A DNA stretch of 10,906 bases from an uncultured archaeon (GCA_964426185.1 CAYRPF010000040.1:17223-28128), one strand, 5' to 3'. Counted from the stretch's first letter, positions 1-10,906 are shown. Numbers and translations are program-made. Notes: generated from the sequence alone by a model not told the origin.

Positions 1-1923
1 AGATTTTAAAATATGGATACTTTTAGAAATGGCTTCAGCAGTGGGTAAACTGTCACCTGTAATCATCACCACATCAATTCCAGCCTCATGGCAAAGGTCG
101 ATAGCATTCTCCACACCTTCCCGTGGGGGATCAATAATAGCTACAAAGCCGATGTAGATTAGCTCGCTTTCAACTTCCTCCCGTTTATTTTCAAGATCCT
201 CTGGAATGAATTCCAATGGCTTATAGGCAAAACTTAGTAAACGATAGCCCTTCATCGCGTATTCATTAATGAGATTCATGATAATCAAGCGTAAATCTAT
301 CGAAAATTCAAATATTCGACCATTATCCCCTAAAAGAAAATCACAGTTGGATACCAGAAATTCACTGGCACCCTTTGTAAAGGAAATTATCTCACCAGAA
401 CGTTTATCTTGCAAAACTTTTGTCATTCGCTTAAATTCCGAAGAAAAGGGAAATTCAATAATTTCCAAATAATGATTCCGAATATCTATACCATTTTTAT
501 GAATAATTTTTGCCTTATGTGCAAGTGTTTGCAAGGCACCCTCAGTGGCACTACCAATAACTTTCCAATCTTCCACTACAACTTTCTTTCGTCGTTTTTC
601 GACTTCAAATTGATATTTCATTAACATAGAATTATTGTTTAGATAAGCAGAACGAATTAAAAACTCGAGATGAGGATAATCTGAGATTTTTTCTATTTTT
701 TGGGGTTTATGAGGTATATCGACCAGATAAAATTCACCTTTTGGGGTATAACCACTGCCGGTCACCTTAAATGTGGAGCCCCTTGCCCAAATATACTGTA
801 CTGCCATTTGACTTTTAGTGAGCGTGCCTGTTTTATCAGTACATATTACGCTCACTCTCCCCAAGCTATCCACCGAAGCTACATTTCGCACGATAACTCC
901 GTATTCCGCCATGGCTACAACTCCAGAAAGCATAATCACCGTAACCAGCAGCGGGATATTCACCGGCATGATTCCCATTGCCGCGTTAAGACTTTCTACG
1001 AACTCGAATTTGCCGGTGGTGATTTTAAGGTAAATAAGTGTTCCCAGCCAAAGTAAGAAGATCGAGATTCCAAACCATTTACCTAGATTATCCATTTTCT
1101 TGCGAATGGGAATTTCAGTACTCTGTATTTCGGCCATTCCTTTCGAAATTTTACCGATTTCCGTATCAGAACCGGTGGCAAACACGATTGCGAGACAGTT
1201 TCCTGAGTTAATAAATGTTCCATAAAACAGAATGTTCTCTTGATTTTGAAGGTGTAAGAGTTTATTTTCTAAGGGATCCCCCCTATTTTTGGAAACAGGT
1301 TCGCTTTCACCGGTAAGGGAGGCTTCATTGACCCTTAAATCGTTGGAAGAAATAATTCGGGCATCCGCTGGCACTTGATCTCCTGTAGCAAGCTTTACTA
1401 AATCACCCACAACAATGTTTTTTGAATAAATTTCTACAATTTGCCCTTCTCGGATTACCCACGATTTTGGAGCAGCCATAGACTGAAGAGCTTCAAGTTT
1501 TTTGGTAGCACGAGCTTGTTGATATATAGCCACCACACAATTCATAATAACAACCATTAAAGTAACATAAACCAACGACATATTACTCGTTCCAAAAAGA
1601 AGGCTGGCAATTAGCATGATTCCTGCAGATATAAGATAGAGTATGATCAACCAGTTAAAAAGAGGTGCTAAATAGGTGGTAATAAACGAAGGTTTTTCTA
1701 AAGATAATATATTTTGGCCATATTTTTCTAAATTTTCTTGAGCTTGTTTCTCTGTCAACCCTAAATCTGGATGAGTTCCGAAATATTCAAAAATTTCTTG
1801 GCGTAAGAAAGCCCAAATATGCTTTTTTTCTGCTTTAATGCATTCTTTTTTATCAGCATCAGATTTTGATTCGAATTTAGAGCAATTATTATAAATATCT
1901 TGATGATCATTATTATTCAGCAC
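1..1923 (-). CDS. Cation-translocating P-type ATPase, type II(A)-like scaffold, 3' end outside the window
   Basis: Manual translation gives 641 open codons from GTG at 1923 to the window edge, with a GGGAG RBS upstream. Motifs seen: GLTEKQAQENLEKYGQN (N-terminal P2 motif), VVGDLV..GDQVPADAR, LTGES (TGES at 1303-1314), ICTDKTGTLT (DKTGTLT at 817-837), VTGSGYTPKG, FPFSSEFKRMT, KGASE, DPPR and MITGD. Four hydrophobic segments (TM1-4) precede the P domain. Confidence 0.97.
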   Translation of the reverse strand, partial: MLNNNDHQDIYNNCSKFESKSDADKKECIKAEKKHIWAFLRQEIFEYFGTHPDLGLTEKQAQENLEKYGQNILSLEKPSFITTYLAPLFNWLIILYLISAGIMLIASLLFGTSNMSLVYVTLMVVIMNCVVAIYQQARATKKLEALQSMAAPKSWVIREGQIVEIYSKNIVVGDLVKLATGDQVPADARIISSNDLRVNEASLTGESEPVSKNRGDPLENKLLHLQNQENILFYGTFINSGNCLAIVFATGSDTEIGKISKGMAEIQSTEIPIRKKMDNLGKWFGISIFLLWLGTLIYLKITTGKFEFVESLNAAMGIMPVNIPLLVTVIMLSGVVAMAEYGVIVRNVASVDSLGRVSVICTDKTGTLTKSQMAVQYIWARGSTFKVTGSGYTPKGEFYLVDIPHKPQKIEKISDYPHLEFLIRSAYLNNNSMLMKYQFEVEKRRKKVVVEDWKVIGSATEGALQTLAHKAKIIHKNGIDIRNHYLEIIEFPFSSEFKRMTKVLQDKRSGEIISFTKGASEFLVSNCDFLLGDNGRIFEFSIDLRLIIMNLINEYAMKGYRLLSFAYKPLEFIPEDLENKREEVESELIYIGFVAIIDPPREGVENAIDLCHEAGIDVVMITGDSLPTAEAISKSIHILKS

Positions 1924-1928
1924 GGATA

Positions 1929-1935
1929 CTCCCTT
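1929..1935 (-). promoter_or_regulatory. Shine-Dalgarno site (AAGGGAG) of the P-type ATPase
   Basis: ctccctt on the + strand, 5 nt from the GTG start at 1923. Confidence 0.65.
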
Positions 1936-1947
1936 TTATCTATAAAT

Positions 1948-2008
1948 AAGGATTTAGAACAATCCTTTTCTACAATATATATTGTTGGATCGTATTAATT
2001 ATAATACG
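1948..2008. promoter_or_regulatory. Divergent promoter region with three adjacent inverted repeats (candidate operators/TATA elements)
   Basis: AAGGATT-N6-AATCCTT (1948-1967), the perfect palindrome ACAATATATATTGT (1972-1985) and CGTATTA-N4-TAATACG (1991-2008), all within the 228-bp gap between divergent genes. Confidence 0.5.
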
Positions 2009-2151: not shown

Positions 2152-3489
2152 ATGTTCGTGGAAAATTCAATTCAAAACAAGATAGAATTATTAGCACCTG
2201 CAAAAAATTTTATGGCGTTAAAGGCTTCTGCACCTTATGCGGATGCAGTTTATTTTGGTGTTGAGAATTTTAATATGCGGATGAAAGCAGATAACTTTAG
2301 TATTCAAGATCTCCCCAGAATCGCACAAATCTGTCATTTTCCAAAAGATCCAACTCATCGACGTAGAAAAGCATTTTTAACTCTAAATATCGTAATTTAT
2401 GAAAATGAGTTAAATCAATTACGCAAGACAATAATTGCTGCTAAAAAAGCAGGTATAGACGCCATTATAGTCCACGATTTAGCCGCTATGCAAATTGCTA
2501 GAGAAGTGGGAATACCTTTTCATATTTCAACTCAATGTAATGTATCAAATTCCGAAAGCGCAAAATTCTACGAGTCTTTAGGGGCGGAACGAATAATTCT
2601 AGCCCGAGAATGCTCTCTTAAGCAGATTACACAAATTACTCCCAAAATGACGACCGCCTCTATTGAAGTATTTATTCACGGTGCCATGTGCTCCTCTATA
2701 TCGGGGAGATGCTATTTATCTCAAACAATTGCATGTTCGGCTGATAAATCTGCAAATAGAGGGGTTTGCACTCAACCTTGCAGGGGAAAATGGACTCTGA
2801 TATCTGAGTCAGGGCATGAATTCTTATATGATGGAAAACGCATTTTAAACTCGCGCGATTTATGTATGATAAATTATATTCCGCAGCTAATTGAAGCAGG
2901 GATTAAAAGTTTCAAGATTGAAGGCAGAATGCGCCATCCACATTATGTAGAAACGGTTTCTCGGGTTTATCGCAAAGCAATTGATGCCTATTATGAAGGA
3001 AAATTCGAGGAAAAGCGGAAAAAAAATAAATGGATAACGCAATTAAAACAAGTTTATAACCGAGGTTTTACCACTGGTTTCTATTTTGGACGGGCATCTG
3101 AAAAGGATTCGCAATTGAACAGTCCTGCAAATATTTCGCATTTTCGATATATAAAGATGGGAGAAATTGTACAAAGTTTTCCCACAAATGCTGTGAAAAT
3201 CCGCCTATTTAATGGAACTTTGAAGGTAGGAGATGAAATCATTGTAATGAGCACTAAAAAAGGAGGAGAAACCTACTTTACTCAAAAAATTAAAGATATT
3301 CGAAAAGAGAATAAAGATGTTACAAAAACGGCTCCAGCAACAATAAATTCTCCGGTAGAAATTACATGTAAATTTGATAACGCAACTTCGGTAGAATGGC
3401 AAGATGCTATCTTCAAGTTCACGGATGAGACTTATCAAAAATCTTTAAAGAAAAGATATGCAAAAAAGCCAAAATATAAGTTGAAATGA
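2152..3489 (+). CDS. Peptidase U32 family Fe-S protein (TrhP/RlhA-like, probable O2-independent RNA hydroxylase)
   Basis: Motifs: ELLAPA, ADAVYFG, HISTQ, GAERIILARE, EVFIHGAMC-x6-C-x18-C-x3-CR (C180/187/206/210), SFKIEGRMR and NRGFTTGFYFG, followed by a beta-rich C-terminal domain. The true start may be GTG 2158, which is 7 nt from GAGG at 2147-2150. Confidence 0.93.
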   Translation: MFVENSIQNKIELLAPAKNFMALKASAPYADAVYFGVENFNMRMKADNFSIQDLPRIAQICHFPKDPTHRRRKAFLTLNIVIYENELNQLRKTIIAAKKAGIDAIIVHDLAAMQIAREVGIPFHISTQCNVSNSESAKFYESLGAERIILARECSLKQITQITPKMTTASIEVFIHGAMCSSISGRCYLSQTIACSADKSANRGVCTQPCRGKWTLISESGHEFLYDGKRILNSRDLCMINYIPQLIEAGIKSFKIEGRMRHPHYVETVSRVYRKAIDAYYEGKFEEKRKKNKWITQLKQVYNRGFTTGFYFGRASEKDSQLNSPANISHFRYIKMGEIVQSFPTNAVKIRLFNGTLKVGDEIIVMSTKKGGETYFTQKIKDIRKENKDVTKTAPATINSPVEITCKFDNATSVEWQDAIFKFTDETYQKSLKKRYAKKPKYKLK

Positions 3490-3491
3490 AA

Positions 3492-5708
3492 TTATTCTGA
3501 AGATGAACTACTGAGGTTTCGTCTTAAGATTTTGATCCTTCTGCGATAATTTACAATTTCTTCATTTAGTCTGGCAATTTCTTTCTTTCCAAGAGTCAAT
3601 TCTGCTTGTAAATTAGATATTTGTTCTTGAAATTGTTGTATCTCTTGATTCTTGGCGTCAAGTTCACTTCTTAATTTCTCAATTTCAGCCTTATACTCGC
3701 CGCCATTTTGAGCTTTCAACAATTCAGTCTCCATTTCTGAAGCTTTGCGCTCTGTAAGTGCCAAATTTTTCTCCAGATCAGCGATTTTTTCAGAAAACTC
3801 CACTTTTTGTTCTTGAAATCTCCGCTGCAAATTCAAATTATCTTGGCGAATAGAATCAAATTTATCTTGCAAATCCTTCAATTCTTTTTTCAGTTGATCG
3901 TATTGATCCTTCATAACTTGGTATTTTCCACTCGATTCAGAGGCTAAAGCGAGTTGCTCCCGTAGTTCTTTATTTAAACTATCCACTTGTTTCTGTAGAA
4001 ATTCCTTTTCAATGTTATCTTTAATCATTTCTGGAGTGAGTTCTTGTGCTTTCTGATATTCTTGCTGTAAAGATTCCAGTTGTTTCTCTAGACGTTGAAT
4101 AATCGCTTTATTTCCGCTGTTTTCACGTTTTAATTCAGAAATCCTATCAAATAGTACTTCTTTTTGAGAGATTAATTCTGCAATTTTTTCATTTAACTCT
4201 TCTTTTTCAGCAGTTATTTTCACGTTTTCAAGAAGCGCATCATGAAATTCTTCTTCTTGTTTTTGCAATTCCTCAATAATGGAATCTTTTTCCCGCAACT
4301 GCTCCGCTAAGTTTTCTTGGGAAGCGATTTTTTGTTGTAGTTCCTCGATTTTTGCAAAAAGTTCTTCTTTTTCCTTTTGATGAGTTTGATGCAATTCTTG
4401 AATTTGACTGGTTTTATCTCTTAAATATTCATCCTTTTGAATCAGTTGTTGTTCTGCTTCATCTAATTTATTATTTACTGACTCCAATTCTTCCCGATAT
4501 ACCATTTTTTGAAGTTTTTCTTGTAATTCATGAAGCTCTTGCTTTAGATCGGTAATCATCAATTCTTTTTCTTGGAGGTGAGCGCTTAAACCCGCTTCTA
4601 GGGAACTTCTATCTTCTTGAGTACTATTAAATGTCTCTCGTAAATGTGATAATTCTTGTTGGGCATTCTGTAAATCTCTTTGTAATTCTTCAATTCGAGA
4701 ATCTTTTAAAGACACAGAGTTTTCTAATTGGTCGTATAAAGATTGCAAGTTTTGGAGATTTTTTTGTTTTTTGTCCAATTCATGAGTTAGATGTTCTGTT
4801 TTATCATGTAAATCATCTAGAATAGATTGCAGAGAATGCTTTTCTTCTAATAAATTCATATTTTCTTGTTCATATGTGTCAATTTTGCTTTGAAATTCTT
4901 CGATTTTTGGAATATCAAGTTGATATTCTGCCAGTTGATTATTTTTTTGTTCTAACTCTTCTGTAATCTCTTGAAATCGTCTTTGGAATAGTTTATTTTC
5001 ATTAGTAAGAATCGAATTCTCAGTTTTTTGAGATTCAAATGCTTTTTCTAACTCCGCATTACGCGCCCGCAAAGCATGAACTTCTTCATTCAATTCTTGA
5101 AATCTAGTTAAATCAGTGTGAACTGCTTCCAATTCCCTGATCTTTATTTGAATTTCCTCTTCAAGTTTTGCAATTTTAGCATCTTTTTCCATTAAAATAG
5201 TTTGGAATCTTTGAAATTCATCTTCATTTGGGATAATTGTGGAAGAAGCCGTTTCTGGAGATTGTTCTGAAGTTGATTCCGACTTAACAATAGAAGGTGT
5301 AAAAAATTCCAATAAATCTGAAATATTAGTAAAGGATATATCATCTTTATAAATAATCTGCGGATGATAACTCATAGAATCTAAAAACCTATTGATTAAA
5401 TCACTCATTAATTCCTTAACTTTTGTTTCTTCCAATTTTTTTAGATTTTCAGCCAATTGATCCATCATGTTATTAATTTGCTGTGTCTCAGCCTTATTTT
5501 TAGTTAAAATTGCAATTTCATCTTGTAATTTTTCATGAATTTCTAATAAAGATTTGACTCCGATAAATAAAGATTTCACCCGAAGTAAAGTATCAGGATC
5601 TAAATTGCGTAACTCTTCTTTTGTCTCCAAGGAAAGGGGAATGTGAAGGTTTTGAAATAATTTTAAAATAGATTCGTAAATATTTTCAGAAGAAGTGTCT
5701 CCATTCAT
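3492..5708 (-). CDS. Long coiled-coil protein of unknown function (738 aa)
   Basis: Uninterrupted 738-codon ORF. It has an ~140-aa N-terminal helical region, an S/T/E/P linker (~aa 141-162), then E/K/Q/L-rich heptads to ~aa 732 with only two prolines. No Walker A motif, TM segment or signal peptide was seen. Confidence 0.92.
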   Translation of the reverse strand: MNGDTSSENIYESILKLFQNLHIPLSLETKEELRNLDPDTLLRVKSLFIGVKSLLEIHEKLQDEIAILTKNKAETQQINNMMDQLAENLKKLEETKVKELMSDLINRFLDSMSYHPQIIYKDDISFTNISDLLEFFTPSIVKSESTSEQSPETASSTIIPNEDEFQRFQTILMEKDAKIAKLEEEIQIKIRELEAVHTDLTRFQELNEEVHALRARNAELEKAFESQKTENSILTNENKLFQRRFQEITEELEQKNNQLAEYQLDIPKIEEFQSKIDTYEQENMNLLEEKHSLQSILDDLHDKTEHLTHELDKKQKNLQNLQSLYDQLENSVSLKDSRIEELQRDLQNAQQELSHLRETFNSTQEDRSSLEAGLSAHLQEKELMITDLKQELHELQEKLQKMVYREELESVNNKLDEAEQQLIQKDEYLRDKTSQIQELHQTHQKEKEELFAKIEELQQKIASQENLAEQLREKDSIIEELQKQEEEFHDALLENVKITAEKEELNEKIAELISQKEVLFDRISELKRENSGNKAIIQRLEKQLESLQQEYQKAQELTPEMIKDNIEKEFLQKQVDSLNKELREQLALASESSGKYQVMKDQYDQLKKELKDLQDKFDSIRQDNLNLQRRFQEQKVEFSEKIADLEKNLALTERKASEMETELLKAQNGGEYKAEIEKLRSELDAKNQEIQQFQEQISNLQAELTLGKKEIARLNEEIVNYRRRIKILRRNLSSSSSE

Positions 5709-5794: not shown

Positions 5795-6859
5795 TCAACG
5801 AGAAAATTCTTCCCAATCAAGATTTTGTTCCACTTGTTCATAACAGATTTCAATTTCATCAAGCTGAATGTCTGAATGAATATTCTGCAATTTTTCTGTG
5901 ATGGAAAAAGTATCTCCTGCAGCTAATATTGTCGGAATTTGTTTTTCTTCCGCTTTTTTAAGAAGAGATGTTTCTGGTCGAAGATTACCGGTAAATATAA
6001 GCAGAGAAATGGGAGTTTCTAAGGCATTTAATGCAATATCTATTCGATCTCCGCCAGTAATGACACAAACGTTCGGTTTTCGTTTGATATATTCAATTGC
6101 TTTATTGCTGTGCATAGCACCAATTACAAAATTCGCAATTTTTCGATTTTTGATCTTAACGAACTCTCCAGTGAGCAATTTACCATCAATAGCCTCAAGA
6201 ATTTCTGCAATAGTAGGAAATTCCAGAGTTTTAACGCTCTTTAATCCCCCAATCAACGCAATATTACTATTTCTCATCATAGGAAGATAATATTTTTGAA
6301 TTCGATTTTCTAAAGTTGAATTAACTGGGCTAAGGATAACCCCCCCAATTTCACATTGCTGCATCCTAAAAATTTTAACCGCAGCTAAAACATCATCAAA
6401 ATCACTATCCCCGGCAATTGGAGCACAGATAATTACCTTAGCATTGAAATTCTTGGCGATATGAGCATCACTTAATTCAACTGCAGCATACTGTCGATAA
6501 TCATGATTGCCTTCAATTAATACCACATCAGTTCGAGATGCAATGAAATCATAGGCATCAGTGATTTTTTCTAAAATTTCGGAAGATTCTTTGGGAAGAA
6601 TTTCATCTAAGAAAAATTTAGGATTTAATAATAAAGGACAAAGTTGTTCCTGGCTGAATTTTCGAGCCACAACAGCAGATATAACAGATGCGTCTTTATC
6701 AGTTAGATTTTTAGGTTTAATTGTGGAAGAATCCCCGATAGGTTTAAAATAACCAGGATTTATCCCATTTTCTTTAAATTTTAAGTATGCTCCAATTGCA
6801 ACAACAGATTTCCCTGATCCACGCTTGGTTGATGATAATATAATACTTTTTGAAGTCAT
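5795..6859 (-). CDS. Phosphotransacetylase-N-terminal-like protein (BioD-like P-loop + DRTGG domain), downstream paralog
   Basis: Motifs: P-loop STKRGSGKS, GYFKPIG, VLIEG, IGAM, VITGGDRIDIAL, LIFTGN and DTF. At 354 aa there is no room for a PTA_PTB catalytic domain. Confidence 0.93.
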   Translation of the reverse strand: MTSKSIILSSTKRGSGKSVVAIGAYLKFKENGINPGYFKPIGDSSTIKPKNLTDKDASVISAVVARKFSQEQLCPLLLNPKFFLDEILPKESSEILEKITDAYDFIASRTDVVLIEGNHDYRQYAAVELSDAHIAKNFNAKVIICAPIAGDSDFDDVLAAVKIFRMQQCEIGGVILSPVNSTLENRIQKYYLPMMRNSNIALIGGLKSVKTLEFPTIAEILEAIDGKLLTGEFVKIKNRKIANFVIGAMHSNKAIEYIKRKPNVCVITGGDRIDIALNALETPISLLIFTGNLRPETSLLKKAEEKQIPTILAAGDTFSITEKLQNIHSDIQLDEIEICYEQVEQNLDWEEFSR

Positions 6860-6879: not shown

Positions 6880-7944
6880 TTAATGCTCCTTTAATAGAAA
6901 TTCAGTATCTAAATTTTCGACTTGATCTCTACAAATCTGAATTTCAGAAGGCTGAATATGAGTCTTTATTCGCCTTATTTGCTCGCTAACCGTAAATGTA
7001 TCTGCACTAGTAGTTAACAAAGGCACTCCCTTTTCTTGAGCAACGCTCACAACTCGTGGCACTGGTTCCATATTTCCGGTAAAAATAATTAGTTTGGTAC
7101 TAGTATCTAAAGCAGCTAACGCGATATCAGTTCTATCTCCTCCTGTGATAACGCATTTATCCACGTTTGCGCGTAAAATTTTCAATGCAGCCTCAGCACC
7201 CATTGCTCCAATAATGAATGATCCAATTAAATTGTTTTTTACTTTGAGAAAATCACCCGAATATAATTTAGCACCTGTGGCATCCATTACTTCAGCGACA
7301 GTGGGCTTTTCTAAATCACGAACATTTTGCAAAGACCCAATCACATGGATATCTCGACTTTCTAAGAGGTCAGTATGGTATTTTTTGATTCGGATTTCTG
7401 CCATTTTACTTCTAGCATTCAGAACTACCCCCAAAACATTCAATTTTTGAGAAGTTAAATATTGATGACAAGTAAATACTGCGTTTAAATCATCATCATC
7501 TTCAATGGGTGCACATATCACAATATCTGCATTAAATTCTTTAGCAAAATAGACATCATCTAAATTCACTGGTGCATATTGAGTGAAAGAATGATTTCCT
7601 TCAATAATCATATGATCTACTTTATTTTGAATGTTAGAGAAAGAGTCTTTAATTTGTTGTTGAATTTCCCGAGCATCTTCGGGAAGAATCTCTTCTAAAT
7701 AAAATTCGGGATTTAAGAAATATGGACATATTTCCTCTTTCGAAAATTTTCGGGCAACCACACTTGAAATTACACTAACATCCTTATCCGTCCGGCTTTT
7801 TTCCTGTTGGGTCATGGCATCACCAATGGGTTTAAAGTATCCCATATTTTTCTCTTGTTCTTTCATTTTTAGGTATAACCCAATCGCGACCACACTTTTT
7901 CCTGCACCAGATTTGGTGGAGGTCAACATGATGTTTTTTCCCAT
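6880..7944 (-). CDS. Phosphotransacetylase-N-terminal-like protein (BioD-like P-loop + DRTGG domain), upstream paralog
   Basis: Motifs: P-loop STKSGAGKS, GYFKPIG, MIIEG, GVVLN, IGAM, VITGGDRTDIAL, IIFTGN and DTF. It is collinear with the neighbouring paralog. Confidence 0.93.
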   Translation of the reverse strand: MGKNIMLTSTKSGAGKSVVAIGLYLKMKEQEKNMGYFKPIGDAMTQQEKSRTDKDVSVISSVVARKFSKEEICPYFLNPEFYLEEILPEDAREIQQQIKDSFSNIQNKVDHMIIEGNHSFTQYAPVNLDDVYFAKEFNADIVICAPIEDDDDLNAVFTCHQYLTSQKLNVLGVVLNARSKMAEIRIKKYHTDLLESRDIHVIGSLQNVRDLEKPTVAEVMDATGAKLYSGDFLKVKNNLIGSFIIGAMGAEAALKILRANVDKCVITGGDRTDIALAALDTSTKLIIFTGNMEPVPRVVSVAQEKGVPLLTTSADTFTVSEQIRRIKTHIQPSEIQICRDQVENLDTEFLLKEH

Positions 7945-7975: not shown

Positions 7976-10120
7976 TTAATGTTTAATGGTTATTTTGATA
8001 TCTACTGCTGAATAACCTTTTTCAGATTCAAAAACCAAACAAGGATTAATATCCAATTCGATAATTTCTGGAAAATCATTCACCAGTTGAGATAATCGGA
8101 CCATAATATCAATCACACCTTCAATATCACTGCGGGGTTCCCCTCTAACACCTTCAAGAATCTTGGAAATATTGGTTTGTTGAAGTTGAGCCATTGCATC
8201 ATTTCGATCATATTGATATGCTAGATCGAATTTAACATCTTTTACATAATTGGCATAAATGCCACCGCTTCCAACCATAATCATAGGACCCCATTGAGGA
8301 TCCCGGTTGACTCCAAAGATTAATTCATTAATTTTCTTCTTATCTTCTTTGATAATCATTTCTTGTACTTCTACTCCGCGAAGATCGGCTCCTGCAGGTC
8401 CTTTCGTGCGAGCATTAGACATAATTGTGATAAATGCTTTTTTAGCTTCTTCAGCAGATTTTATATTTAGAACTACCCCTCCGCAATCCCATTTGTGAAT
8501 TATTTGAGGGGACACAATTTTCATAACTACAGGAAATCCGATTTCTTCTGCTAACTGAGCAGCATCACGAGCCGTTTGGGCTAACCGTGATTTAGGATTT
8601 TTAATACCGTATAAATCAAATATTTCGGAAGTTTCATAACTCAATAAAACTACCCGTCCATCAGCTCGTACTTGAGAGAGAATCTCTTTTACACGCTCTT
8701 TATCCACTTCAAAATGTTCGATTTTCTTTGAAGTTATAATAGGCGCATTTTGAATATCATTATATATTTTTAAACCATTTAAAACACGCACTGCATCTTC
8801 AGGAAATGCATAAGTAGGAACACCGCCTTGGGTCAAGACTTTAGCCGCTTCGTTAACACTCACACCTCCAATAAAGCTGGCTATCAATGTTTTTGTTGGA
8901 TATTTTTGATGTAAGGCGGTTATTTTTTGAGCCACTTCCAGAGGTTTAGTTTGAGCTTGAGGTGTTAACAAAATAATACACCCGGCTACTTCAGAATCTG
9001 AACACTGTAACAGAATATCTAAAGCATCTTCATAACGTTCAGGGGGAGCATCTCCAATAATATCTACTGGGTTGTAGAAGTTTGATTCTGCAGGAAGGAC
9101 ACTTCTTAATTTATCAATAGTATCCTCGGAAAAACGGGCAATACCTAATTTCGCAGCTTCCATTGCATCGGTACAGACAATTCCTGGTCCACCAGCGTTG
9201 GTAACAATTGCAAATTTATCTCCTTTTGGAATAGGAGCAATAATGAATGTCATACAATAATTGAACAAGTCAGAAATCGTTTCGGCTCTAATTACACCTG
9301 CCTTCTTAAATGCTAAGTCAAACGCAATATCACTTCCTGCCAAGGCACCCGTATGGGATGAAGCAGCTTTTGCTCCAGCTGCACTACGCCCAGATTTAAG
9401 TAAAATGACAGGTTTCTTTTTGGATGCTTCGGAGACAACTTTAAAAAATTTATCACCATCTTGAACAGATTCTATATATGCCGCTATTACTTTAGTCTGT
9501 TCATCTTGAGCAAGGTATTCAATGAAATCCACTTCATCTGCATCGCATTTATTTCCTAACGAGATAAAACTGGAAAAACCAATTTGGTTTTCAATTGCCC
9601 AATCCAGTAAACCTGTCATCATTGCTCCAGACTGAGATAGCATACCAATATGCCCTTTATCTGGAGATAGAGAAGAAAATGAGAAATTTCCATCAGTAAT
9701 TAACCCCAAACAATTAGGTCCTAATATTCGCATATTATATTGCTTGGCTAATTCATTGATGCGATTTTCACGTACCATTCCTTCTCCACCGATTTCTTTA
9801 AATCCAGCGGTGATAATTACAAGAGATTTTACACCTTTTTTTCCACATTCTTCAACCACTGGAACACAAAATCTACTGGGAATACATATAACTCCTAAAT
9901 CGATATCTCCAGGAACATCTAGAACTGATTTAAAGGCAGTAAAACCATATATTTCACTTTCTTTCGGATTAATTGGATAGATTTTTCCTTTATATCCCGA
10001 TTTTTCCATATTTAATAATACAGTATGGCCAATTTTTCCCAGTTTGTTACTAGCTCCTATAACCGCAACAGATTTTGGATGAAAAAATGGTTGAATAGAT
10101 TGAACAGTCGATAAGGTCAT
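7976..10120 (-). CDS. acd: Acetate/acyl-CoA ligase (ADP-forming), fused alpha-beta subunits (ACD)
   Basis: CoA-binding fold (PKSVAVIGAS, IYPINP, ITAGFKE, RILGPNCLG), SQSG, SLGNK, phospho-His motif ASSHTGALAG (His256), TNAGGPG and NPVD. The C-terminal ATP-grasp domain has GFPVVMKIVSPQIIHK (His542) and ELDINP. No GNAT domain. Confidence 0.96.
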   Translation of the reverse strand: MTLSTVQSIQPFFHPKSVAVIGASNKLGKIGHTVLLNMEKSGYKGKIYPINPKESEIYGFTAFKSVLDVPGDIDLGVICIPSRFCVPVVEECGKKGVKSLVIITAGFKEIGGEGMVRENRINELAKQYNMRILGPNCLGLITDGNFSFSSLSPDKGHIGMLSQSGAMMTGLLDWAIENQIGFSSFISLGNKCDADEVDFIEYLAQDEQTKVIAAYIESVQDGDKFFKVVSEASKKKPVILLKSGRSAAGAKAASSHTGALAGSDIAFDLAFKKAGVIRAETISDLFNYCMTFIIAPIPKGDKFAIVTNAGGPGIVCTDAMEAAKLGIARFSEDTIDKLRSVLPAESNFYNPVDIIGDAPPERYEDALDILLQCSDSEVAGCIILLTPQAQTKPLEVAQKITALHQKYPTKTLIASFIGGVSVNEAAKVLTQGGVPTYAFPEDAVRVLNGLKIYNDIQNAPIITSKKIEHFEVDKERVKEILSQVRADGRVVLLSYETSEIFDLYGIKNPKSRLAQTARDAAQLAEEIGFPVVMKIVSPQIIHKWDCGGVVLNIKSAEEAKKAFITIMSNARTKGPAGADLRGVEVQEMIIKEDKKKINELIFGVNRDPQWGPMIMVGSGGIYANYVKDVKFDLAYQYDRNDAMAQLQQTNISKILEGVRGEPRSDIEGVIDIMVRLSQLVNDFPEIIELDINPCLVFESEKGYSAVDIKITIKH

Positions 10121-10237: not shown

Positions 10238-10906
10238 TTATATTTTGATGATCGAAATTTGCTCATCCACAGAAATTTCTGTTTCACCTTGATACTTCCA
10301 TGAAAATGCATGTTGTTCTTGAACAATTCCTTCTCGTTGCCGGGTAATATGCTGGCAAGATACTCCCGTTAAGAATCCCCATGTAGGATCACATTCTCTC
10401 CATCCTCCTGCTTGAGGAGAAAAGAACTCACACCAAGCATGAGGTTCTAATTTTAAACTGGGAAGATCGATAACCCAACCATGCACTATTTTGGCCGGAA
10501 TCCCGCCTCCACGAAGAATTGCTACAAAGAGATCGGACATTTCTGAGCAATCTCCTTTCCTTGTTTGCAAAACTGTGCTGGCATCTTGCCGAATACCATT
10601 TATTTCATAAGTAACTTTCTGATTCACAAATTCAAATGCTAATTGAATGAATTCTGAAGCATTTATTGCATTATTTTTCAGAATTTGAACCAGATCCCGC
10701 AGATTTTTACTTTTCAAAGGCCAAAATCTTGAAGATTTAATCATAATTTCCCCGATAGTATTGGGAGCAGTTATTTCTCTATATTCCTTCCATTTACCAA
10801 AATGAGGTAAAATTATACTTGCATTACCATTTTTCAATATTGACAGGATAAAAGGAGAAACCGTCCTAAAGACAAAAAAAGGAGAGATCATCCCTATTTG
10901 GCAGAC
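10238..10906 (-). CDS. Transglutaminase-like (Cys-His-Asp) domain protein, probably 5'-truncated by the window
   Basis: Motifs: GDCSEMSDLFVAILRGGGIPAKIVHG (Cys), HAWCEF (His) and WRECDPTWG (Asp). The frame stays open upstream of ATG 10891 (GTC TGC CAA ATA GGG) to the edge, so the start is undetermined. Confidence 0.9.
   Translation of the reverse strand, partial: VCQIGMISPFFVFRTVSPFILSILKNGNASIILPHFGKWKEYREITAPNTIGEIMIKSSRFWPLKSKNLRDLVQILKNNAINASEFIQLAFEFVNQKVTYEINGIRQDASTVLQTRKGDCSEMSDLFVAILRGGGIPAKIVHGWVIDLPSLKLEPHAWCEFFSPQAGGWRECDPTWGFLTGVSCQHITRQREGIVQEQHAFSWKYQGETEISVDEQISIIKI

Follow-up and report, generated by a model that had tools for sequence, protein, structure and literature searches.

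The stretch of DNA considered here (hereafter the window) comprises 10,906 nucleotides of an uncultured archaeon, contig C40:17223-28128 of a 3.26-Mb assembly that is 92% complete. At its beginning it carries, on the minus strand, a large part of a gene for a P-type ATPase in which the fourth transmembrane helix (M4) reads PVNIP in place of the PEGLP of calcium pumps; further along the same protein, the aspartate of M6 has given way to a histidine. Both exchanges mark a clade of pumps found in Asgard archaea. The gene probably encodes an intact, catalytically competent P2-type pump, which would follow an ordinary E1-E2 cycle and move one small cation per cycle other than Ca2+. Does the clade represent a new P2 subfamily, with a cargo not known for any P2 pump (a divalent transition metal or protons) carried at a His/Glu/Asn site? 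On this broader proposal the scales stand about level.

The M4 motif and the integrity of the gene

The window ATPase part carries the Pfam domains E1-E2_ATPase, Cation_ATPase, Cation_ATPase_N and Hydrolase. For alignment to the Listeria Ca2+-ATPase with HMMER, a full-length orthologue (P0005), 87% identical to the window protein, was used. The Val of the M4 motif sits on the gating Glu (E309 in the numbering of SERCA, which is well established and used throughout) and the Asn on the next residue (G310). A preliminary description of the window had noticed PVNIP at 952-966, and translation gives exactly this position; the span that it assigned to the region, 940-1000, covers the motif, with outer ends that are 3-4 bases off. 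It had also held DKTGT, TGES, KGAxE, DPPR and TGD to be intact, and all five are located in the window translation (Table 1). The catalytic motifs, including GDGVND, are conserved across the whole clade.

Could the motif stem from an error of sequencing or assembly or from a mutation of one strain, or could the gene be a broken relic? A scaffold gap of 100 N does interrupt the gene in this assembly, just before window base 1 (C40:17123-17222; L004:6901-7000). However, the PVNIP codons are identical, with zero differing letters, in contigs of two independent public runs (X2 and X3), and P-x-N-[IL]-P is present in 120 of the 120 best homologues (PINIP 80, PLNIP 21, PINLP 11, PVNIP 10 and PTNIP 1). 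The motif is therefore neither a sequencing error nor a chance change, and the conservation that the preliminary description proposed to look for among homologues is there: close orthologues are without PEGL. Past the gap the frame stays open until a stop at C40:16305. Bridging contigs of the public runs X1 and X2, which are labelled hydrothermal-vent metagenomes, have 259 letters where the assembly has the 100 N, and the full-length gene thus measures 3000 nt (2841-100+259), or 999 codons, in frame. Because public contigs bridge the gap in this way, the gene is taken to be whole and intact; its catalytic motifs are moreover conserved throughout the clade. The conservation in all 120 homologues and the contigs of independent runs refute an error, a one-off mutation or a relic, to which only a negligible chance is left. 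GDGVND falls within the assembly gap; it is seen in a 99%-identical protein from another assembly. An open reading frame of 946 codons, read across the N run, was considered and is an artefact.

Two short sequences precede the gene. Upstream of the GTG start, window 1924-1960 (minus strand) reads TTATTTATAG, which is TATA-like and a possible promoter element, and GGGAG lies five bases before the start as a possible ribosome-binding element.

Residues of the ion site

The helices M5, M6 and M8 are encoded in the contig past the gap. M5 reads ICINIFEG and keeps the Asn and Glu of SERCA N768 and E771. M6 reads LLISATLHSLTG; its Ser aligns to the Asn of N796 and its His to the Asp of D800, and N796/T799/D800 become S/L/H in the window gene. 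M8 reads TIFIAEFVMA and keeps the Glu of E908, in a register set by gap-free comparison with what we take to be the SERCA motif. The preliminary description had named TM5, TM6 and TM8 as the place to look further, and the M6 exchanges, together with the residues kept in M5 and M8, strengthen its case for an altered site.

As read from these alignments, SERCA site II (E309, N796, D800) is erased in the window pump: across the clade E309 is replaced by V/I/L, N796 by S/A/T/Y and D800 by His. Of site I, three of the five side chains appear to be kept, a His is gained and the M4 Asn is possibly gained as well.

How firmly do these residues hold? Among 138 full-length clade members, the M4 Pro is found in 138, the Asn in 135 and the second Pro in 133; the gating-Glu position is hydrophobic (I/L/V/F/W) in every one, and the residue after the Asn is I, L or F. 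The same alignment has the M5 Asn in 132, the M5 Glu in 138, the M6 His in 137 and the M8 Glu in 136. When 39 clade representatives were set against 103 PEGLP representatives, just about 10 positions split the two sharply, and the sharpest are G310N and D800H; at the latter position the PEGLP representatives have Asp in 92% and His in 1%. The clade also has GDGVNDAL where PEGLP pumps have GDGVNDAP, and clade-specific residues occur in M1 and after M2 (Table 1). A search with a paralogue (P0003) against 1.84 billion cluster representatives gave P-x-N-[ILF]-[PVI] in the top matches and ordinary PEGLP pumps below about 480 bits.

Of interest is a basal subclade, consisting of a second pump of the source genome (L007:2793-5666) and its relatives P0292-P0327. 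It has AAIP-x-N-F-P in M4 and ILY-x-T-[IV]-H-F-F-P-P in M6, and it keeps TGE, the fourth residue of TGES being free (S, P, T, I, V, A). The label 'Potassium-transporting ATPase ATP-binding subunit' given to the member from Lokiarchaeum ossiferum is apparently a misnomer.

Place among P-type ATPases

FastTree (152 rows) splits the 39 clade rows from 106 PEGLP-type rows with a support of 99. IQ-TREE (LG+C20 PMSF, short search, 64 rows) was rooted on the genome's CPC pump (C134), which forms a long outgroup branch. The references added were NCBI-annotated and plasmid-borne: one P3A, two MgtA and one PMCA-type pump. The tree covers these; eukaryotic P2B/C/D, P4 and P5 were judged by profile scores and fold matches. 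The clade is monophyletic (SH-aLRT 100) on a stem of 0.54. P3A/P3B references branch first, then a P2C-like group, then the clade among prokaryotic PEGLP groups, where its exact place is unsettled (supports 84-88). The clade itself is well supported, and it lies inside the P2 radiation; a tree with references had been suggested in the preliminary description, and it bears out the separateness of the group. Did the clade arise from PEGLP-type (P2A-like) pumps? The basal AAIP-x-N-F-P is close to AAIPEGLP and would fit such a descent.

Among the NCBIfam models only the generic P-type model, TIGR01494 (HAD-IC), is passed, with 172 bits for the window fragment and 263 for P0005 (cut-off 62.3). The P2A models give the best scores for the clade protein, at 56-59% of their cut-offs: P0005 scores 417 against 703.4 on TIGR01116 (SERCA-type) and 445 against 798.3 on TIGR01522 (PMR1-type), and the paralogues score 404-493. 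IIC, IID, IIB, IIIA, IIIB and V follow in that order. The P3A model TIGR01647 gives 325 (cut-off 615.5) and the P3B Mg2+-ATPase model TIGR01524 gives 327 (cut-off 610.75); the MgtA references read PEMLP and branch elsewhere. P1B profiles give 165-228 against cut-offs of 313-397, and M4 has neither CPx nor SPC. Of the residues that mark the P2A ion site, PEGL(P) of M4 and Asn/Asp of M6 are absent, and those of site I, N768/E771 in M5 and E908 in M8, are present. The general P2 features, a SERCA/Na,K-ATPase-like fold of ten helices and a place inside the P2 radiation, are both found. The preliminary description had spoken of a possibly uncharacterised subfamily; in agreement with this, the clade passes no curated subfamily cut-off and is undescribed in the papers searched.

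An AlphaFold2 model of P0005 (36-row alignment; mean pLDDT 81.8, pTM 0.75) has ten long helices, with M4 broken at residues 314-317 (M-P-V-N). The break falls at the motif, as it does at the ion site of known P2 pumps. The best 50 Foldseek matches in the PDB are to SERCA2b, SPCA1, SERCA1a, Na,K-ATPase and H,K-ATPase (E 5e-57 and weaker, TM-score 0.6-0.77); no P4 or P5 structure is among them.

These comparisons bear on a lipid or organic-cation pump, in which case the clade would be the prokaryotic equivalent, or the precursor, of the P4 flippases or P5 pumps of eukaryotes. The Asgard host lineage would suit such an ancestry, and in M4 a hydrophobic residue at the Glu position precedes a small polar residue, as in the PISL of P4. 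But the A-domain has TGES, not DGET, and the P-domain GDGVND, not GDGAND. The P4 model TIGR01652 gives 94 bits for the window fragment (cut-off 431) and stays below 1e-40 on full-length proteins. The P5 model TIGR01657 gives 246 (cut-off 618), and a single Pro stands before the variable M4 residue, with no PP(E/A)LP. Every one of the 50 best fold matches is a P2 ion pump, and the clade retains the Glu of M5 and that of M8, as is typical of ion sites. Since all P4 and P5 hallmarks examined are absent, a lipid or organic cargo would be very unlikely. Thus the intact core and the clade-wide M4 motif of the preliminary interpretation stand, and the organic or lipid substrate that it allowed for is disfavoured.

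Distribution and paralogues

All clade members whose source is named are Asgard: Promethearchaeota, Lokiarchaeota, Thor-, Hel-, Hod- and Hermodarchaeota, Ranarchaeia, Lokiarchaeum ossiferum and Candidatus Harpocratesius, the protein of the last being 83% identical to that of the window, which therefore probably belongs to this genus or a near relative. On a calibrated clade profile no PEGLP pump exceeds 900 bits and no clade member falls below 940, and counts were made at E<=1e-285. At this level, 120 of the 151 Asgard genomes with a completeness of 90% or more contain the clade. They represent 39 of 51 genera and 12 of 22 families; with the same profile and threshold it was not found in 23 genomes of the other ten families. 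A cut of E<=1e-170 is too lax, as the 375 of 400 obtained there includes PEGLP pumps and is not a clade count. The clade is found in none of 251 genomes from the phylum of a Nanoarchaeota metagenome-assembled genome (MAG) and in none of 201 from the phylum of a Methanobacterium MAG. The genome counts are samples, and the restriction to Asgard archaea holds for the genomes sampled. Ordinary PEGL-type pumps are found elsewhere: a search with DKTGT and GDGVND, which are common to all P-type ATPases, had 80 of them, from bacteria and DPANN archaea, among the matches listed.

Clade pumps are present in two to four copies per genome, and a tandem arrangement is common in other Asgard families. The source genome has four: those of C40 (PVNIP), C9:31356-34334 (PINIP), C80:10542-13460 (PINLP) and C34:2793-5666 (the basal pump mentioned above; PLNFP). 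It also has one canonical PEGLP pump (C92:2540-5440, L008) and one CPC copper-type pump (C134). The canonical pump comes close to the P2A cut-offs, with 701 against 703 on TIGR01116 and 721 against 798 on TIGR01522, and since the same genome holds it, a role apart from that of a Ca2+ pump is suggested for the clade pumps.

Possible cargo and mechanism

All catalytic motifs are conserved over a deep clade, and for this reason a normal phosphoenzyme cycle of the E1-E2 type is to be expected. A single pocket might lie at the position of SERCA site I, made up of the new M4 Asn, the kept M5 Asn and Glu, the M6 His and the kept M8 Glu. These residues (two Glu, two Asn, one His) would surround the unwound part of M4, where P2 pumps bind ions, and one small cation, not Ca2+, would be moved per cycle. 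That the five conserved membrane residues form one site, and what binds there, we infer from the sequences.

Which cation might this be? The best guess, a tentative one, would be a divalent transition metal such as Mn2+, Fe2+ or Zn2+. A His, two carboxylates and amide oxygens suit borderline divalent metals (Mn2+, Fe2+, Co2+, Ni2+, Zn2+), and such ions are suggested on that ground. The cargo list of the preliminary description omitted them, but a pocket of His and two Glu would suit them at least as well as H+. Several points weigh against the reading as a whole. The neighbourhoods of the four paralogues hold no cargo hint, no metal regulator and no partner gene; two to four paralogues per genome would be a high number for a metal exporter; P2 and P3 pumps do not usually have His as a ligand, which makes the analogy weak; and the kept site I Asn/Glu/Glu could still bind Ca2+. 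Other inorganic cations are possible as cargo.

The runner-up is H+, somewhat less probable and doubtful in its own right. The pump would then be a proton pump or proton-coupled exchanger, with the M6 His and the M5 and M8 Glu as protonatable carriers, and might use ATP to set up a membrane potential, like the P3A pumps of fungi and plants. Proton carriage is conceivable because these same His/Glu residues are titratable: after loss of most oxygen ligands, a His and two Glu remain. P-[IVL]-N-I-P in M4 also resembles the P3A pattern in being hydrophobic at the Glu position, the bacterial P3A reference reading PVALP. However, the P3A profile score is about half of its cut-off, the tree separates the clade from P3 references, the M6 Asp that defines P3A is exactly the residue lost, and a conserved buried Arg/Lys is not seen in M5 in the 138-member alignment.

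Or do the pumps still carry Ca2+ (or Ca2+/Mn2+), through a site-I-like pocket alone, as the databases have it? P2A Ca2+ pumps are the best matches by profile and by structure, and the residues equivalent to N768, E771 and E908 are retained. JGI labels clade members 'Ca2+-transporting ATPase', and a published survey of Asgard transporters treats Asgard P2 pumps as orthologues of a putative Ca2+-ATPase (PMC7997004). Yet the M4 Glu is present in the canonical pumps used for comparison, as is, in the proportions given above, the M6 Asp, and the clade scores lie far under both P2A cut-offs. Single-site Ca2+ pumps (SPCA, PMCA, Listeria LMCA1) keep site II, not site I, which also counts against a Ca2+ cargo. 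With the gating Glu turned hydrophobic, the M6 Asp lost and a canonical PEGLP pump encoded elsewhere in the genome, Ca2+ is disfavoured and would be an improbable cargo, though less so than a lipid.

A P2-type pump for a small cation other than Ca2+ thus remains the preferred reading. To our knowledge these are the first P2/P3-class pumps that lack the M6 aspartate. Divalent transition metals are otherwise the province of P1B pumps, and protons that of P3A.

Significance

P-type ATPase subfamilies are defined by the residues of the ion site, and each has been found to have its own cargo. We know of no Ca2+, Na+/K+ or H+/K+ pump that does not depend on the two residues exchanged in the clade. 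Here is, apparently, a large undescribed branch of the calcium-pump family in which both are exchanged, present in most genomes of many Asgard families and often in multiple copies.

Full-text literature searches, with subscription-only papers outside their scope, gave no description of the motif or the clade; a paper that derives SERCA and PMCA from bacterial pumps does not mention the clade (PMC7016017). The preliminary description had warned that a routine 'Ca2+-ATPase' label would hide the altered site, and public sources do apply that label. Counting the clade proteins as Ca2+ pumps feeds into what is claimed about calcium signalling among the archaea related to eukaryotes. Such inferences need correction if the cargo differs, and in that case a histidine-based site in a P2 scaffold would be a new transport chemistry to study. 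If the clade is indeed a new subfamily, it would have grown to two to four copies per genome in those archaea that stand nearest to eukaryotes.

Features of the window and neighbouring genes

Table 1. ATPase gene and motifs in the window (positions counted from its first base)
Feature	Position	Strand	Remarks
P-type ATPase gene, first 641 codons	1..1923	-	GTG start at 1921-1923, open at base 1; open reading frame and translation
TGDS, P-domain TGD motif	49..60	-	window translation
DPPR, P-domain	121..132	-	window translation
KGASE, N-domain nucleotide-binding motif	361..375	-	window translation
DKTGT, phosphorylated Asp	823..837	-	D, K, T, G, T invariant in alignment A1
Transmembrane helix M4 segment ESLNAAMGIMPVNIPLLVTV	937..996	-	residues 310-329, translation
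PVNIP replacing PEGLP	952..966	-	residues 320-324; unwound part of M4
TGES, A-domain dephosphorylation motif	1303..1314	-	LTGES in 115/119 close homologues
M2 extension YQQARA	1507..1524	-	clade-specific Gln vs Glu (96%) in PEGLP pumps; 39 vs 103 representatives
M1 segment YLAPLFNW	1651..1674	-	clade-specific Pro vs Gln (95%) in PEGLP pumps; 39 vs 103 representatives

The neighbours of the four clade paralogues (a U32 peptidase, a presenilin-like protease, lysine aminomutase, an M1 peptidase, an epimerase and a Cys-tRNA synthetase) are unrelated to ion homeostasis, and synteny at the ATPase locus is kept only within the genus. In the window, a U32-family peptidase-like gene (2152-3489, plus strand; best models TrhP and UbiU, below cut-offs) is divergent from the ATPase gene, with a 228-base AT-rich spacer between them. 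Directly downstream of the ATPase gene and outside the window, C40:14539-15912 (L004:4317-5690) encodes a presenilin-family membrane protease homologue of 457 aa, whose position is kept within the genus.

Farther along, 3492-5708 (minus strand) encodes a coiled-coil protein of 738 aa that matches SMC, Rad50 and the archaea-specific SMC-related protein only weakly and below threshold, and that is conserved in the genus at 49-69% identity. Next to it are tandem paralogues of 354 aa each (5795-6859 and 6880-7944, minus strand), whose AAA_26 and DRTGG domains resemble the N-terminal half of phosphate acetyltransferase. An ADP-forming acetyl-CoA synthetase-type ligase of 714 aa (7976-10120) adjoins this pair, an arrangement kept in two genomes of the same genus. 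A transglutaminase-core domain protein (10238-10906, minus strand) is cut by the contig end.

Comparison with known pumps

Which of the known pumps does the clade resemble most? Among solved structures the best sequence matches are P2A pumps: Listeria LMCA1 (6zhf, 9euq), human SPCA1 (8iwp, 7yag) and SERCA1a/2b (1iwo, 7w7u), with E of about 1e-100 to 1e-104. Domain order, catalytic motifs, ten helices, an M4 unwound at the motif, and the M5 N..E and M8 Glu of site I are shared. Unlike these pumps, the clade has V/I/L for the M4 Glu, Asn for the following Gly, S/L/H for N796/T799/D800 in M6, and a long stem of its own. The canonical pump of the same genome (C92, 966 aa) has the same architecture as the window pump, and the tree places both among the P2 pumps. 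It differs in reading AAIPEGLPAV in M4, in scoring 721 and 701 on the two P2A profiles where P0005 scores 445 and 417, and in grouping with ordinary prokaryotic P2A-like pumps.

Likenesses to other classes are more partial. P3A pumps, as represented by the reference of Rhodococcus plasmid pWB1 (NCBI annotation), share a hydrophobic residue at the M4 Glu position (PVALP as against PVNIP) and a single reduced site, but need the M6 Asp that is His in the window pump, and they are separated in the tree. The PISL of P4 flippases has its parallel in the Ile/Val/Leu and small polar residue of the clade M4, but the A- and P-domain motifs differ, as described above. P1B-4 pumps have SPC in M4, HEGxT in M6 and eight helices, and carry Co2+, Fe2+ or Zn2+. 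They offer a lead only; they resemble the clade in having a His in the M6-equivalent helix and are unlike it in class, helix number and M4 motif.

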